Assembly: GCA_048939995.1 (NCBI GenBank)
Contig: JBHLOY010000001.1
Location: forward strand, 160,001-224,000
Direction: 5' to 3'
DNA: 64,000 bases
From: Promethearchaeota archaeon
GTDB taxonomy: Archaea; Asgardarchaeota; Lokiarchaeia; Sigyniarchaeales; SOKP01
Shown: positions 6,069 to 11,213 of the stretch, piece by piece
Position numbering within the stretch: the first letter of the stretch is position 1
How the letters are laid out: every line of letters starts with the position of its first letter
Made by a program: the position numbers and the translations under genes
Notes under the pieces: model-generated
Databases searched by the model: none
What the model was told of the DNA's origin: nothing
The model's input: the letters and a program-made list of their open reading frames with translations, nothing else

Positions 6069-7406
6069 TTATGCTCCAGTTTCAATATCCTTGACTATGC
6101 CAACTGCAATAGTCCTGCCCATATCACGAACGGCGAATCTCCCCATCTCCGCAAACTGGTCATAGCGCTCCAAGCACATCTTTTTTATAGGCTGTAGTTT
6201 AATGACAGCAGATTCATTTCGCTTTATGAACTTCGGTGCATCTTCTATGACCGCTCCTGTTTTCTGATCAAGCTTTTTGCTGATTTCTATGAACTTTGCT
6301 GCGACCTGAGCAGTATGAGCGTGAATTACAGGGGTATATCCTTGAGCAATAGCGGTTGGGTGCCAAATAACTATAATTTGCCCTGTCCAATTGCCATTTG
6401 GGAATATGACGTTAGGGGGATTGTTTGGGTGACCAAGGCAATCTCCTCTCCCTACATCCTTCATTTCAAGGCCTCTAATACTGAATCCAACGTTATCACC
6501 TGGTTCAGCTTGAGGAATTTCCTCATGATGCATTTCAATGCTTCGGATTTCACCTTGAAATCCAGTTGGCATAATGATAATTTTGTCACCTTTCTTAAGT
6601 ACACCAGTTTCGACTCTACCAACTGGAACAACACCGGTTCCTTTAATTCTATACGCATCCTGGATTGGGAGTCGTAATGCCTTATCAGTTGGTTTTGGTG
6701 GTATCTCAAATTGATCGATTGCGTCAATGAGGGTTGGACCATCATACCAAGGCAATTTATCGCTTTTCTTTGAAAGATTTTGCATCATCAACCCTGAGAC
6801 AGGTACAAATGGAATCTTTTTAACAGGGAATCCTATATTTTTTAAGAGATCTGAAACTGCTTCTTTGCATTCATTAAAGCGTGCTTCACTATAGTCATAG
6901 TTATCTGCTTTATTGATTGCTACAACTAATTGTTTTATTCCAAGAGTTTGAGCTAAATAAGCATGTTCTCGTGTTTGACCATTGGCAGCAATTCCAACTT
7001 CCATTTCACCTTTTTTACCAGATACAACTAAAATAGCAGCATCAGCTTGTGAAGCACCCGTGATCATATTCTTTACGAAATCAGCATGACCAGGAGCATC
7101 AATTATTGTGAAATATTTGTTTGGAGTTTCAAATTTTCTGAAAGCTAAATCGATAGTAATACCTCTTTGGCGTTCCTCTTTTAATTTGTCAAATACGAAT
7201 GCATAGGACCAAGAATCTCGATCGAACTCTTTTGCTAATTTTTCTAATTCGCGAGCTTCTCTATCGGTGACTGCTCCTGTCTCTATTAACAGGGCACCCA
7301 TCATTGTGGACTATATGGGATTAAACCTAAGTGGTTATCTAATCATTCCATGATCGATGTGCCCAATAATAACTAGATTCAGATGTTGTTTTTGTTTTGA
7401 AGACAT
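6069..7406 (-). CDS. tuf: Translation elongation factor EF-1alpha; two exons (7346-7406 and 6069-7312), 434 aa after removing the 33-nt intron
   Basis: Exon 1 MSSKQKQHLNLVIIGHIDHG; spliced junction gives GHIDHGKST; then ERQRGITID, DAPGH, GQTREH, NKAD, GRFAVRDM. Confidence 0.95.
7313..7345 (-). other. 33-nt bulge-helix-bulge (BHB) intron in the EF-1alpha mRNA
   Basis: Intron UGAUUAGAUAACCACUUAGGUUUAAUCCCAUAU. Central helix AUGG/CCAU, bulges AA^U and AU^A, intron stem GAUUA/UAAUC. Excision yields GGA AAG UCC (G-K-S). Confidence 0.9.
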
Positions 7407-7460
7407 TTCTTTATCAACTTAATTTTTTTTTAGATAATATAATATTAATTGAATATAGAT

Positions 7461-7470
7461 TTTATTTAAA
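7461..7470 (-). promoter_or_regulatory. Putative TATA box of the EF-1alpha gene
   Basis: TTTAAATAAA on the minus strand about 55 nt upstream of ATG 7406; weak evidence in an AT-rich background. Confidence 0.35.
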
Positions 7471-7549
7471 GATATTAGTTCTAAGTCTTGCTCAATATTT
7501 ATTTTTTACTATAAAAATAAGGTAATTTTGTATATAATAAGAAGGTAAG

Positions 7550-9084
7550 CTAATTTTTTTCATTTTTTAACTGAATTATTTCAGATAAAGTTTTATTACA
7601 ACTTTTTTTCTTAATTGGAGCTGAAATATTCCATTCATTCATTAATTTACGTAAGGTCTTAATATTTACCTCCAAACCATTAGCTACGTCTTGGACAGAA
7701 AATCTATCAACCAAAAATTGAAGATTATTTTCATTTTCTACTTTTGACTTTAGAAGATCATAAGCCTCACGATAAGTATCAAAATATCTCCTTTTCCTTT
7801 CAAGGGAATCGACACAATTTTCAGTACTACTTATCATTTCATTGAATAAAACCGCTCCTAATGAGAGTTCCCATACTATCCTTCGAGATTTGATAATGTC
7901 ATCCGGTGATGGTTCATTTTTAACATAGACTTTGTATTTAATGTCAAAGACATCCTTTATTTTATCTAAAAACCATTTTTCCGATGAACAAATCTTTGTA
8001 GTCCCCTCTATCCTATCGGCATCATATACACCTAATAACCAAGATAAAGCATGTTCTCTATTATTTTCATTAAGATTCAATACAAAGTCGGGAATTTCCT
8101 TAAATTTAATTCTTTCTAAATCTTTAAATAAAGGTTTACATGTAAATTGTACATTTATAAGTGTGAATTTCTTTTTCTCTCCATGATAATCAATTATTCT
8201 TTCTCTTTCATTCAATTTATTTTTAGGGTTTAATCCTAAGACTTCACAAAATTTTAATAAATGAATTTTGTCCTAAATAAAAAGCCTAACCAATATGCTT
8301 TATCTTTTGTATTTATTCTTTTAAAATAATCATATTTTAGCTTTGGTTCCTTTACTTGCCACTGCTGATGTGAATAATCTTTTAAATTAGGATTACATTT
8401 TTGATACTTCTCAACTATTTTTGAACTTATTCCAATCTCTTTATTAGAGGATAATAAATTCTCTTCTAACATCTTGATTTGTTTCTTAGAAAACTTATAA
8501 TCAGGATTGTATCCAGAATTATTCGGATTTTTCAGTCTCCCAAAAATATGTTTTAAGAATTCCTTCCCTCTACCAAAATATTTAATACTTACATATTCTC
8601 GAAGTTTTGTAATAGAAAGTGAATCTAGATTTGGATCTACTTGTACCACTGCTTTAAGTAAGTCATTGATGAAATTATCTGTGGGGTATTTTCCAATTTT
8701 TTTTGGCTGACTTTCAAGATCATAATTAATATTGCTAATTTTTACACCCCTTTTGATAGGTACATCTCTATTTTCCTTTCTTTTCGATATCGTATTTTTA
8801 TCTTCAGAATCTCCCATCCAATGAATCGAATCACATTTCTTTACTTTTTTCTCTTGAGAGCCTTTATTTATCCAATCTATCTTATCAAACTTAGTTGTAT
8901 TTTTCTCATTAGGAGCATTATTTACCCAATCTATCTTATCAAATTTACTCTCTTTGTCTACTCTCTCTCTTTTTTTATTATCTTTCAATATTTTTTCTTC
9001 ATTATCATCATTATAATCAACCACAATATCATTATCTGTTTTATTTTTCTTAACAGAGTTATTGTTCTTTGTTTTAAAACTCAT
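7550..9084 (-). pseudogene. Split/degenerate LAGLIDADG-type homing endonuclease gene with N-terminal low-complexity/repeat region and C-terminal HTH-like tail
   Basis: ORF 8254-9084 ends in DYFKRINTKDKAYWLGFLF (motif 1 lacking ADG). Another frame resumes with DKIHLLKFCEVLG and continues into ORF 7550-8215, which has WLLGVYDADR (motif 2 with R for G). Confidence 0.75.
8815..8950 (-). repeat. 54-nt (18-aa) tandem coding repeat, about 2.5-3 copies
   Basis: KFDKIDWVN / KFDKIDWIN / KCDSIHW; ccaatctatcttatcaaa recurs at 54-nt spacing. Confidence 0.8.
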
Positions 9085-9124: not shown

Positions 9125-9520
9125 CTAAAAATTAAGGAATGAATCCTTATCATTAGCTGTTTTACATAAGTATCGCTCACTTTCGTTTAATACTAAGGCG
9201 TATCTATTTCGAAGGCTAAGGAGCATGTCCCTTTCCCTCAAATTTCCTGTAAAAATCTCGTTACTAGGATAGCCTAAGCGGAAAAGAATTTTCGTTCTTG
9301 CAGAATCTATGGCGCTATCATAGAGAAGATATGGTCTTTGTTCCGAAATAATGTACCCTAAACCTTTTGCGTCACATTCCTCAATATTGTTTGAAAAATA
9401 GCTATTAAAAGTATTTTTCATAATGAATTCTGCTGATTCGGGAACTCTTCGCTAGTCACTCTTACCCCATTCCTCTCTAGTTTCACTACTTTTAGTCCGA
9501 ACTTCCTCAATTTCAGCCAT
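9125..9520 (-). pseudogene. Hypothetical gene with one in-frame TAG (ATG 9520, TAG at codon 23, then continues into ORF 9125-9421)
   Basis: MAEIEEVRTKSSETREEWGKSD*RRVPESAEFIMKNTF is in one frame. Confidence 0.5.
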
Positions 9521-9683
9521 ATTGATATTATAGAACCTCTATATTTAAAGAAAAAACCTTCTCAAAAAAAACCATTAATTCTCTTAATTAGGATATAACT
9601 GGTATGAAAAAATTGAAGAATTAATTGATTTTAATAATAACGAGTTTGAATTTGCAAGATAAAAAATCAATTCTCAACGATAA

Positions 9684-10208
9684 ATGCTAAAATATTATAA
9701 ATCATTAGAATTTCTTCTACATAAATGTATAAGAGTAAGTAGCGAAAATCTAATGAAAAAACCAAAAGCATTAAAAATAAAATCTATTTTCAGTGATAAA
9801 AAAACATTTTTCTGTGGAGAATGTGGATCAGCCATTAAATTACTAGATAAAACCTGTAAGAAATGTGGGTTCCAAAATAAAGTCAGAATAATGGCTATCC
9901 AAGAATTAGAGTCAAGGGAGATAAATATTAAACATGATTTAGATAGACTTGTAAGAGAAATGAAATCTAAATGGTTAATTGCACAATCTGTACAATTGAA
10001 AGAAATGGAAATAGATTTATTAATGGAAGCGGCTCGGAAAATTAAATTAAGAAGGGTGCAACTAGAAATAGGAAGTATCCCAGAAGATAGAATAAGGTGG
10101 GTAAAATCCCAATATCATGAAAAAAATAGAACTATCCAAGAAATCGCTGATGATCTAGGTGAAACCATGATCATCGTGAGGAAATACGTTGATTCTAATG
10201 TACAATAG
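9684..10208 (+). CDS. Zn-ribbon plus C-terminal HTH protein (start possibly 9753)
   Basis: CGEC...CKKC; C-terminal RTIQEIADDLGETMIIVRKYV helix-turn-helix pattern. Confidence 0.65.
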   Translation: MLKYYKSLEFLLHKCIRVSSENLMKKPKALKIKSIFSDKKTFFCGECGSAIKLLDKTCKKCGFQNKVRIMAIQELESREINIKHDLDRLVREMKSKWLIAQSVQLKEMEIDLLMEAARKIKLRRVQLEIGSIPEDRIRWVKSQYHEKNRTIQEIADDLGETMIIVRKYVDSNVQ

Positions 10209-10359
10209 AATTATAAAGAGTCTTTGGATTTAAATATAATAAAGTAACTTTCCAAAAGAAAAGAGGTTAGAGAAAACTACTTCTTCTAGAAAAATTAATT
10301 AAAGACGTTAAGGTTTTTGTCAATTAGATCTATAGATGAAACAATTTTAAGATAGAAAA

Positions 10360-10608
10360 ATGATTTGTCCAAATTGTAAGAATCAAGTTGTCCCAGAAAG
10401 GATATATATGAAACCTATAAAGGATTATTGGATTCTGGGCAGTCCTCAATGTCACATTTTACTTTATGAAGAGATTGTATATACTACTGAAAAGAGTAGA
10501 AAAATGGCAGAGTTAAAGAAAGAATTAAAAAGAAGGGGATTCGATAATTCTGTTTTAAAAGAATTAGATAGTAAGAAAAAAAGAGAAGTTAATAATAAAA
10601 ATCCCTGA
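10360..10608 (+). CDS. Small hypothetical protein with N-terminal CxxC (possibly truncated)
   Basis: MICPNC start; the frame stays open for about 37 codons after the TGA. Confidence 0.4.
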   Translation: MICPNCKNQVVPERIYMKPIKDYWILGSPQCHILLYEEIVYTTEKSRKMAELKKELKRRGFDNSVLKELDSKKKREVNNKNP

Positions 10609-10751
10609 TCGAATACGATGGCAACCCGAATTAATATAGATGATTTGCTTAGAAACACTCAAGTAAGACGGTATGATATTCTGGCTTTAAGTGAAGATTT
10701 TAGTAGAATCACTGTGGTTTAACTTTTTAATTGGACAGTTGTTATATATTT

Positions 10752-11213
10752 TTAATTCAATAATTTTTTAGAATTTCCTTTAAGATCTAGGTACAATTCT
10801 CCCTTATTCTCCAATAATAAGTTGAATATTCCATTGACTTGTTTTTGAAAGTTAATTATTTCGCCATTTTTATCAGTAAATTCAATTACAACTTTTCTCT
10901 CTAAAAATTCATGAAATACTTGTTGGATATTATAAATATTTACTCGCGTTTCCATGAAAAAATCTAATAAATGATGTAGATAAAAAGCTTTAACATATGA
11001 TTGTTCTTTGCTATATTTCTTTTCTAAATCTTTATAATGAAAAAATTTTAACTGTTTCAAGACAATAGAATCTTCTTCATCAAATAAGTGTTTTAATTTC
11101 TCGTTAAAGGTCCACTCTGTACCATAGTCAATATTTCTATCCACAAAATTAGCGATTAAGCGATCTATTCCTGCTTTATCTGTCCATTTATTATGAATAA
11201 CCCAGTTTGGTAT
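10752..11213 (-). CDS. Hypothetical protein; probable ATA start at 11213
   Basis: Frame open upstream of GTG 11144: (M)PNWVIHNKWTDKAGIDRLIANFVD; AAGGT 7 nt before the ATA; later LHHLLD motif. Confidence 0.6.
   Translation of the reverse strand: MPNWVIHNKWTDKAGIDRLIANFVDRNIDYGTEWTFNEKLKHLFDEEDSIVLKQLKFFHYKDLEKKYSKEQSYVKAFYLHHLLDFFMETRVNIYNIQQVFHEFLERKVVIEFTDKNGEIINFQKQVNGIFNLLLENKGELYLDLKGNSKKLLN

Follow-up and report, generated by a model that had tools for sequence, protein, structure and literature searches.

Why does a broken gene for a LAGLIDADG homing endonuclease lie directly upstream of an elongation factor gene that is itself interrupted by a very small intron? The question is raised by a 64,000-nt stretch of Promethearchaeota archaeon DNA (the window; positions 160,001 to 224,000 of contig JBHLOY010000001.1, assembly GCA_048939995.1), in which a gene read in two frames at 7550–9084 precedes an EF-1α gene carrying a bulge-helix-bulge (BHB) mini-intron in its P-loop. 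An earlier note on this DNA had taken the two-frame gene to be a decayed endonuclease and had proposed that gene and intron were once partners in collaborative homing. We find that the gene is a fresh, unfixed deletion allele of an otherwise living gene. We think it likely that this is a recently inactivated free-standing LAGLIDADG homing endonuclease, a partner of the mini-intron in collaborative homing, caught while decaying.

A recent and polymorphic deletion upstream of EF-1α

The two-frame gene holds at the coordinates first given for it, on the minus strand like EF-1α. Its stop codon lies 143 nt before the EF-1α ATG at 7406–7404 (the earlier note had about 145 nt) and 204 nt before the intron, and the arrangement with the endonuclease gene upstream of EF-1α is identical in three related contigs (L004, L009 and L010). 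The first open reading frame (ORF-A) is terminated by a TAA that follows the deletion, and its C-terminal end reads KDKAYWLGFLFRTKFIY before this stop. The second frame (ORF-B) is readable from 8274 to the TAG at 7552–7550 and translates as (D)KIHLLKFCEVLG...WLLGVYDADR... or, more fully, as (D)KIHLLKFCEVLGLNP...WLLGVYDADRIEGT....

To place the break we used L009, a conspecific contig whose DNA is 99.5–99.9% identical by blastn across 4.4 kb. Relative to L009, the window allele lacks 73 nt at 8274/8273 and has one adjacent mismatch. The missing 73 nt encode CRDGAITSGKNSTIKRYQLAIELG; these residues close motif 1, supply its catalytic Asp and form the first hairpin. The internal deletion that had been proposed, removing the first catalytic residue and the strands after it, is therefore confirmed exactly. 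In intact homologues motif 1 reads AYWLGFLCADG or CRDG and is followed after ~20 residues by KDK.HL..FC..LG; judged by the intact allele, 24 codons are missing from the window. That intact allele is the 535-aa protein P0026, from a metagenome-assembled genome (MAG) annotated as Heimdallarchaeota, and it is 100% identical to the second frame of the window.

Both alleles are found in contigs of independent studies, and the frameshift is therefore real but polymorphic. A contig of run X7, from an independent mangrove study, bridges the deletion (8216–8306) with zero mismatches, and runs X4 and X8, from two further studies, hold the undeleted form in otherwise identical sequence. In several runs of the source study, 97–99% of the window's words are present; none of the sequencing runs listed as holding the sequence is an RNA run. 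Between the window lineage and its sister (L004 and L010, 58–67% protein identity), the ratio of nonsynonymous to synonymous substitution rates (dN/dS) is 0.16–0.19. This is close to the value for the neighbouring eIF2α gene (0.16), and the endonuclease gene was therefore under purifying selection through most of its history. This ratio, together with the undeleted form in two other studies, indicates that the deletion is recent as well as unfixed. The proposal that the gene had decayed after fixation is not supported for this copy, in view of the long purifying selection and of the intact allele in a genome 99.5–99.9% identical.

Two further ideas about the lesion were rejected. Motif 2 does read LLGVYDADR at 8038–8012, and the final Arg had been taken as a sign of decay; the intact 535-aa allele has the same Arg, and the catalytic Asp is kept. 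A programmed -1 frameshift joining ORF-A and ORF-B is ruled out by a TAG just ahead of DKIHLL in the second frame and by the absence of a slippery site.

The gene is predicted to encode a two-motif LAGLIDADG endonuclease

The earlier note had suggested that LAGLIDADG profiles be searched with both frames. In Pfam and NCBIfam, neither the two window pieces nor the intact proteins P0026 and P0024 gave a match at E <= 0.1, although close homologues gave sub-threshold matches to LAGLIDADG_1 and _3 and weak hints of helix-turn-helix (HTH) Pfam families were seen on relatives, in the C-terminal tail. The family assignment rests on homologues, on a profile comparison with solved structures and on the predicted fold. 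A database search returned Asgard MAG proteins of 320–400 aa that are collinear with ORF-A plus ORF-B and carry AYWLGFLCADG as motif 1 and WLLG(F/Y)YDGDG as motif 2. A wider search gave at least 141 relatives, and PF14528 (LAGLIDADG_3) is recorded for many of them; a profile search of 1.8 billion cluster representatives gave 458 family representatives at E <= 1e-30. When compared with the Protein Data Bank (PDB), the family profile matched I-HjeMI, I-AniI and I-DmoI (E = 1e-3).

In intact P0026 the motifs are AYWLGFLCRDG and WLLGVYDADR, with acidic residues D272 and D381. An acidic catalytic residue at the end of both motifs is conserved across the family (Asp, or Glu in an aldolase-associated clade); in the window allele the first of the two falls inside the 73-nt deletion. 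The AlphaFold2 model of the intact allele has a predicted local distance difference test (pLDDT) score below 50 for residues 1–129 and above 85 over residues 130–520, with confident helices at 130–250. Domain 1 is modelled as H260–272, E273–277, E286–293, H294–307, E315–324, E327–339 and H341–349 (H, helix; E, strand), domain 2 follows, and the alpha-beta-beta-alpha-beta-beta-alpha order of the LAGLIDADG fold appears twice in the model. A Foldseek comparison of the model with the PDB gave the bI3 maturase as best match (8.7e-7), along with I-AniI, I-DmoI (TM ~0.6), I-SceI and PI-SceI; WhiA appears only at rank 49. The protein thus falls into four parts, namely a disordered N-terminus rich in repeats, a helical domain, a two-domain LAGLIDADG core and a helical C-terminal tail. 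On this evidence from homology and modelling, we assign the gene to the LAGLIDADG endonucleases, as first proposed, as a divergent monomeric enzyme with two motifs.

A degenerate-pattern scan also returned weak matches (~27–47% over the core) in Bacillota, Chloroflexia and other bacteria (L077, L078, L081–L088 and L090). These may be WhiA or other LAGLIDADG proteins.

Intron and endonuclease gene occur together at EF-1α

EF-1α is present in a single copy in this genome and is interrupted after 20 codons and one base. The intron has BHB geometry, with a central helix of AUGG paired to CCAU, bulges AA/U and AU/A (here and below a slash marks the site of cutting or insertion) and an inner helix of 8 bp. 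Its outer, exon-exon helix is weak, of the relaxed HBh' type. Removal of the intron yields GHIDHGKSTMMG, in which GHIDHG-K-STMMG is restored through the joined codons GGA AAG TCC (G-K-S); the sequence that the intron splits is conserved in all 28 relatives without it. Since there is only one EF-1α gene, removal from the mRNA would be needed for viability. Two EndA-family genes are found in the genome. The weak outer helices of the introns fit the EndA described for Asgard archaea (PMC5829648), which is of the broad-specificity (αβ)2 type and reportedly cleaves relaxed motifs unaided.

The earlier note had tied the endonuclease to the EF-1α intron and had called for a check of their co-occurrence, and this tie stood up. 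The comparison covered EF-1α in 30 relatives, and 24 of these are congeneric species. The 33-nt intron is found in two of the 30 (this genome, G000, and G018), and the same two are the only ones with an endonuclease gene or its remnant upstream. The other 28 have neither, and a conserved 130-aa gene stands directly before an uninterrupted EF-1α. The distribution does not follow relatedness: G019 and G010 are nearer to G000 (96–97% EF-1α identity) than G018 is (92%), yet lack both elements.

The DNA around the intron was compared as well. The 105–118-nt leader, from a promoter-like box to the ATG, shows 82% identity when the carriers are set against each other and only 57% when each carrier is set against its nearest non-carriers. 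Leaders of non-carriers across two subclades are 76–80% identical. The introns of the carriers match at 31 of 33 positions, and the flanking codons are GGA A/AG TCC in carriers versus GGT AAA TCG in non-carriers. Exons 1 and 2 of EF-1α track the host phylogeny and not the cassette. In these comparisons the endonuclease gene, the leader and the intron behave as a unit with its own history, although a host-like exon 1 lies between them.

Three side observations concern this locus. First, in G015, another species of the genus, EF-1α carries a distinct BHB-like insert of 31 nt that shifts the frame (L101, ~1440–1480). It falls between GH and IDHGK, 9 nt upstream of the site used in the window; an endonuclease gene was not found in the 1.5 kb upstream of it. 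Inserts have therefore entered the P-loop region on at least two occasions. Second, ~1.6 kb of the window (9125–10720) between the endonuclease gene and the conserved 130-aa gene (10752–11144) holds three short ORFs of 98, 174 and 82 aa, the 174-aa one with a zinc ribbon. Relatives are without these ORFs, and their 130-aa gene abuts EF-1α or the endonuclease gene; the stretch may be further inserted DNA. Third, the two contigs with an intact gene, L009 (JBHLSI010000439.1) and L010 (JBHLOI010000121.1), both end ~150 nt into EF-1α exon 2. The shared end is probably an assembly break in sequence common to co-occurring strains or species.

Relatives of the endonuclease lie beside mini-introns in other genes

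To see whether the pairing recurs, we fetched 80 loci from species-representative genomes and sought inserts relative to uninterrupted homologues; the comparison set, a limited one, consisted of ORFs read from stop to stop in this genome and at the other loci. Clean inserts within 800 nt of the endonuclease gene were found at 21 loci, in nine further host families (Table 1). They lie ~140–760 nt from the endonuclease gene, in highly conserved motifs, and nearly all are 29–33 nt long and either contain a stop or shift the frame. Far from the endonuclease gene, only two inserts were found (in a class I aminoacyl-tRNA synthetase and in RIO2) despite 3.4 times more sequence there. The near zone thus holds nine of the 11 host families (binomial p = 5e-5, counted by family). 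Family members are found on either side and on either strand of the host gene.

Almost every insert can form a 4-bp helix with two 3-nt bulges and an inner hairpin, and a cut after the second bulge base restores the frame; this BHB geometry is common to ~20 related inserts. Six GH38 introns preserve the hairpin through six compensatory pair changes, with both sides changed. A strict scan for BHB structure and ORF joining alone did not discriminate, giving 0.43 candidates/kb near the endonuclease versus 0.34/kb far from it.

In a tree of 65 endonuclease ORFs, each host gene corresponds to one clade (support of 100 each in the Shimodaira-Hasegawa-like approximate likelihood ratio test, SH-aLRT). 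The endonucleases found at EF-1α and at aIF2γ form sister clades (SH-aLRT 81), with the member at EF-2 as their neighbour in the tree. The aIF2γ introns of two Promethearchaeota MAGs (L013, 5891–5960, and L015, 5871–5940) are 29 nt long and occupy the same position, GGA A/../AG; their 5' end (TGA.TAG) resembles that of the EF-1α intron, and a sister-clade endonuclease lies ~700–760 nt upstream. Because sister clades accompany introns at the same codon position with similar 5' ends, the sequences suggest jumps of endonuclease lineages between paralogous P-loop targets.

Table 1. Features of the endonuclease/EF-1α locus (positions in the window) and host genes interrupted near family members at other loci. 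A slash in a motif marks the insert.
Feature	Position	Strand	Remarks
Deletion-allele pseudogene of free-standing LAGLIDADG endonuclease	7550..9084	minus	Two frames, collinear with intact 535-aa P0026 save 73 nt
ORF-A, 276 aa	8254..9084	minus	Repeat-rich disordered N-terminus, helical domain (NPDYKFS...), start of motif 1
Motif 1 remnant KAYWLGFLF	8275..8301	minus	Without catalytic Asp and first beta-hairpin; from alignment with intact homologues
Junction of 73-nt deletion	8273..8274	minus	2-nt ambiguity, frame-shifting; from blastn of L009 and contigs of runs X4, X7, X8
Second frame	7550..8272	minus	Remainder of LAGLIDADG domain 1, domain 2, C-terminal helical (HTH-like) tail
Motif 2 LLGVYDADR	8012..8038	minus	Catalytic Asp kept, final Gly replaced by Arg; same Arg in intact allele
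Spacer with EF-1α promoter-like box (~7511-7491) and 5' leader	7407..7549	minus	History follows cassette, unlike host phylogeny
EF-1α exon 1	7346..7406	minus	MSSKQKQHLNLVIIGHIDHG and first base of Lys codon
BHB-type mini-intron, 33 nt	7313..7345	minus	In P-loop Lys codon; in-frame TAA and TAG
EF-1α exon 2	6069..7312	minus	
EF-2			GHIDHG/KTT; 30-nt insert, same Lys-codon position; P0005 directly upstream
aIF2γ			GHVDHG/KTT
DeoC-family aldolase			GVD/MGRN (GVD/MGRNIFQ); 32-nt insert; P0007 and P0008 just downstream
GH38 mannosidase			HWDRE/WYLPF
CobO/BtuR			GRG/KGKTT
PFK			IGG/DDT; 30-nt split beside L052, L073
RuBisCO large subunit			GGGI/HAHP
Acyl-CoA dehydrogenase			Insert near family member
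Zn-ribbon protein, 117 aa	C11:369967-370317		Lies outside the window; insert near family member

Intact and broken endonuclease genes beside retained introns

Within the EF-1α clade we observed the gene in five states, and the intron is retained in every one. The gene is intact in L009 (535 aa) and L010 (593 aa), it is broken by the 73-nt deletion in the window and by a 1-nt frameshifting deletion in L004 (reproduced by three Logan assemblies), and in G018 it is reduced to its last 74 codons. The lineage therefore holds three independent lesions.

The same genome contains traces of a second family member. Two fragments of its second LAGLIDADG domain (G000 C17:375415–375705 and 376578–376784; L002 and L130) flank a 224-aa gene ~0.7–2 kb from a 30-nt mini-intron in fwdA (C17:377453), and they look like an older, shredded cassette. 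Finally, no endonuclease relative at E < 1 was found near the mini-introns of metG (C6:82138), purA (C7:109894) and a caiB-like gene (C38:64700) of G000, making these orphan introns. Shredded fragments and orphan introns are the pattern expected if endonucleases decay after spreading while introns persist.

Discussion

How might such a pair have arisen and been maintained? In the reading that we favour, the intact 535-aa enzyme would recognise and cut the uninterrupted EF-1α P-loop sequence (GHIDHG-KST), and repair from a cassette-bearing chromosome would copy the 33-nt BHB intron in; longer repair tracts would extend to the leader and, ~200 nt upstream, to the endonuclease gene. The intron would split the recognition site, so that a carrier is protected, and the cost to the host would be low, with the tRNA-splicing endonuclease and a ligase excising the intron from the mRNA. 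Once all chromosomes had the intron, nothing would be left to cut and the endonuclease would decay, while the intron, being hard to lose, would stay. This interpretation was made in outline in the earlier note and is partly supported. Collaborative homing fits the mini-introns beside homologues in many genes and the co-occurrence at EF-1α; decay after fixation does not fit the recent polymorphism.

Several points weigh against this reading. As described above, the Pfam LAGLIDADG models gave no match to this protein at E <= 0.1. Exon 1 of EF-1α lies between the intron and the endonuclease gene and is host-like, while a single long co-conversion tract predicts otherwise; this requires later short-tract recombination or separate transfers. 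Synonymous divergence (dS) of the endonuclease between the two carrier lineages is ~1.0–1.1, and because this resembles the dS of host genes, old vertical descent with several precise losses could take the place of transfer. In L063 (3923–6090) and L075 (3728–5977), a family member stands directly upstream of a PFK gene without an intron, and its sister, L052, adjoins an intron-split PFK. The intron is thus not an obligatory partner; L063 and L075 could represent intron-less homing, or loci at which the intron has yet to arrive or has already gone. At 42 of the 65 endonuclease loci no interrupted neighbour was detected with the limited reference set. Finally, three of the steps, the cutting of the intron-less site, the protection that the intron gives and splicing of the mRNA, are inferred from the sequences.

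Some of these points would be accommodated if an active endonuclease homed without an intron to a site near its own insertion point, with the mini-introns either passive or independent elements accumulating at the same motifs. The PFK genes of L063 and L075, the failure of exon 1 to track the cassette, and the insert of G015, 9 nt off and without an endonuclease within 1.5 kb upstream, are all consistent with this. We nevertheless consider it unlikely, given the perfect co-occurrence of intron and endonuclease at EF-1α, the strong enrichment of introns within 800 nt of family members, and the sister clades that accompany introns with similar 5' ends at the same codon of paralogous GTPases.

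Could the protein instead be a regulator of the adjacent gene, with the proximity of the intron incidental? WhiA is a conserved bacterial housekeeping regulator derived from LAGLIDADG proteins, and it does not keep the acidic catalytic residues. Like WhiA, the window family has two LAGLIDADG domains followed by a helical tail, which in WhiA binds DNA; the fold match to WhiA is weak (rank 49), one homologue is annotated as WhiA, and the gene is under purifying selection next to the EF-1α promoter. A housekeeping role is hard to reconcile with a patchy family that is absent from 28 of 30 relatives, that has been broken or deleted three times independently, and that retains its acidic residues. 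Furthermore, its neighbours are unrelated genes sharing only a mini-intron in a conserved motif, and it sits on either side and either strand of them. For these reasons, a domesticated LAGLIDADG-plus-HTH regulator of the WhiA kind is improbable.

The best structural match, the bI3 LAGLIDADG maturase, followed by the bifunctional I-AniI, raises the further question of whether the protein acts on RNA, as a maturase-like cofactor that helps the host splicing endonuclease with the neighbouring relaxed BHB intron and has no DNA endonuclease activity. The weak outer helices of the introns and the fact that the gene always adjoins one would suit such a role. It is made very doubtful, if indirectly, by the strains with destroyed copies, as the intron is retained in the sole EF-1α gene where the core is destroyed (window), where 74 codons are left (G018) and where the gene is frameshifted (L004). 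The orphan mini-introns in metG, purA and caiB likewise do without a nearby family member, the catalytic Asp or Glu is conserved in both motifs family-wide, and Asgard EndA is reported to cut relaxed motifs unaided (PMC5829648).

That the frameshift is a sequencing or assembly error in a gene intact in this organism can practically be dismissed, even though the source genome is a MAG in 38 contigs and the undeleted form is seen in L009, X4 and X8, since the loss is a clean 73 nt, unlike a homopolymer slip, and the X7 contig spans the junction mismatch-free, contrary to what the earlier note had allowed for.

Collaborative homing as we favour it for EF-1α has its closest precedents in phages, where the free-standing F-CphI accompanies the psbA group I intron of cyanophage S-PM2, and the nrdB intron of T4 is paired with MobE (PMC6083498, PMC2790892). 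As in those pairs, the endonuclease is encoded next to the interrupted gene and not within the intron, its target is presumed to be the site of intron insertion, the intron has no ORF or a dead one, and both partners move and occur together. Unlike them, the present pair is found in cellular archaea and in many host genes, the enzyme is of the LAGLIDADG rather than the HNH or EndoVII-like type, the intron is a 29–33-nt BHB element removed by the host rather than a self-splicing group I ribozyme, and cleavage is predicted. Among archaeal systems, I-DmoI and I-PorI share the fold, the monomeric two-motif form and the partnership with a BHB intron. They are encoded inside long rRNA introns, whereas the window family is free-standing, is accompanied by ORF-less mini-introns in protein-coding genes and has in addition a disordered N-terminus, a helical N-domain and a helical C-terminal tail. 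The BHB intron of the crenarchaeal cbf5 pre-mRNA also interrupts a protein-coding gene, is excised by the tRNA-splicing endonuclease and has been gained and lost patchily (PMC2738675). There, one host gene is concerned and no associated endonuclease gene has been described; here, many genes are concerned, and in EF-1α it is the P-loop codon that is split.

A different kind of insert is known from phage T4, in which the free-standing endonuclease MobA lies beside gene 60, an essential gene carrying a 50-nt, stop-containing bypass element after a GGA codon. This insert is thought to protect against MobA. The EF-1α locus resembles this pair in having a free-standing endonuclease and a short stop-containing insert after GGA in an essential gene. 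We considered translational bypass in place of splicing and rejected it: EF-1α offers no matching GGA codon for landing, and its invariant Lys codon comes back only when the RNA is joined across the BHB cut sites. Judging from the sequence, splicing rather than ribosome hopping is the likely route at EF-1α.

Free-standing LAGLIDADG genes that accompany BHB mini-introns in protein genes of archaea were not found described in the literature searched. Introns of archaeal protein genes are there essentially limited to cbf5, and the mobility of BHB introns without an ORF is unexplained. Relative to the known systems, the combination of a free-standing LAGLIDADG gene with an ORF-less BHB mini-intron, in the protein genes of Asgard archaea, in many hosts and with a full decay series, is new.

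At the level of the family, we regard as evenly balanced the wider proposal that these LAGLIDADG enzymes are what seeds tRNA-type mini-introns in Asgard protein-coding genes and spreads them. Each lineage would have one conserved target, with a BHB intron of ~30 nt as immunity element and occasional jumps between paralogues (the P-loops of EF-1α, aIF2γ and EF-2), and decay after fixation would leave orphan introns behind. If true, mRNAs of the prokaryotes most closely related to eukaryotes would have come to be interrupted by a route that works on DNA and is driven by a protein. At EF-1α, endonuclease and mini-intron appear and disappear together in an essential gene, and all stages of the endonuclease life cycle (intact, deletion, frameshift and stump) are preserved in close relatives. 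As the pairing repeats in about ten unrelated genes, the origin and spread of Asgard mRNA introns become directly testable. The targets would be ~20-bp sequences encoding universally conserved motifs, and natural meganucleases of new specificity might therefore be found in the family.

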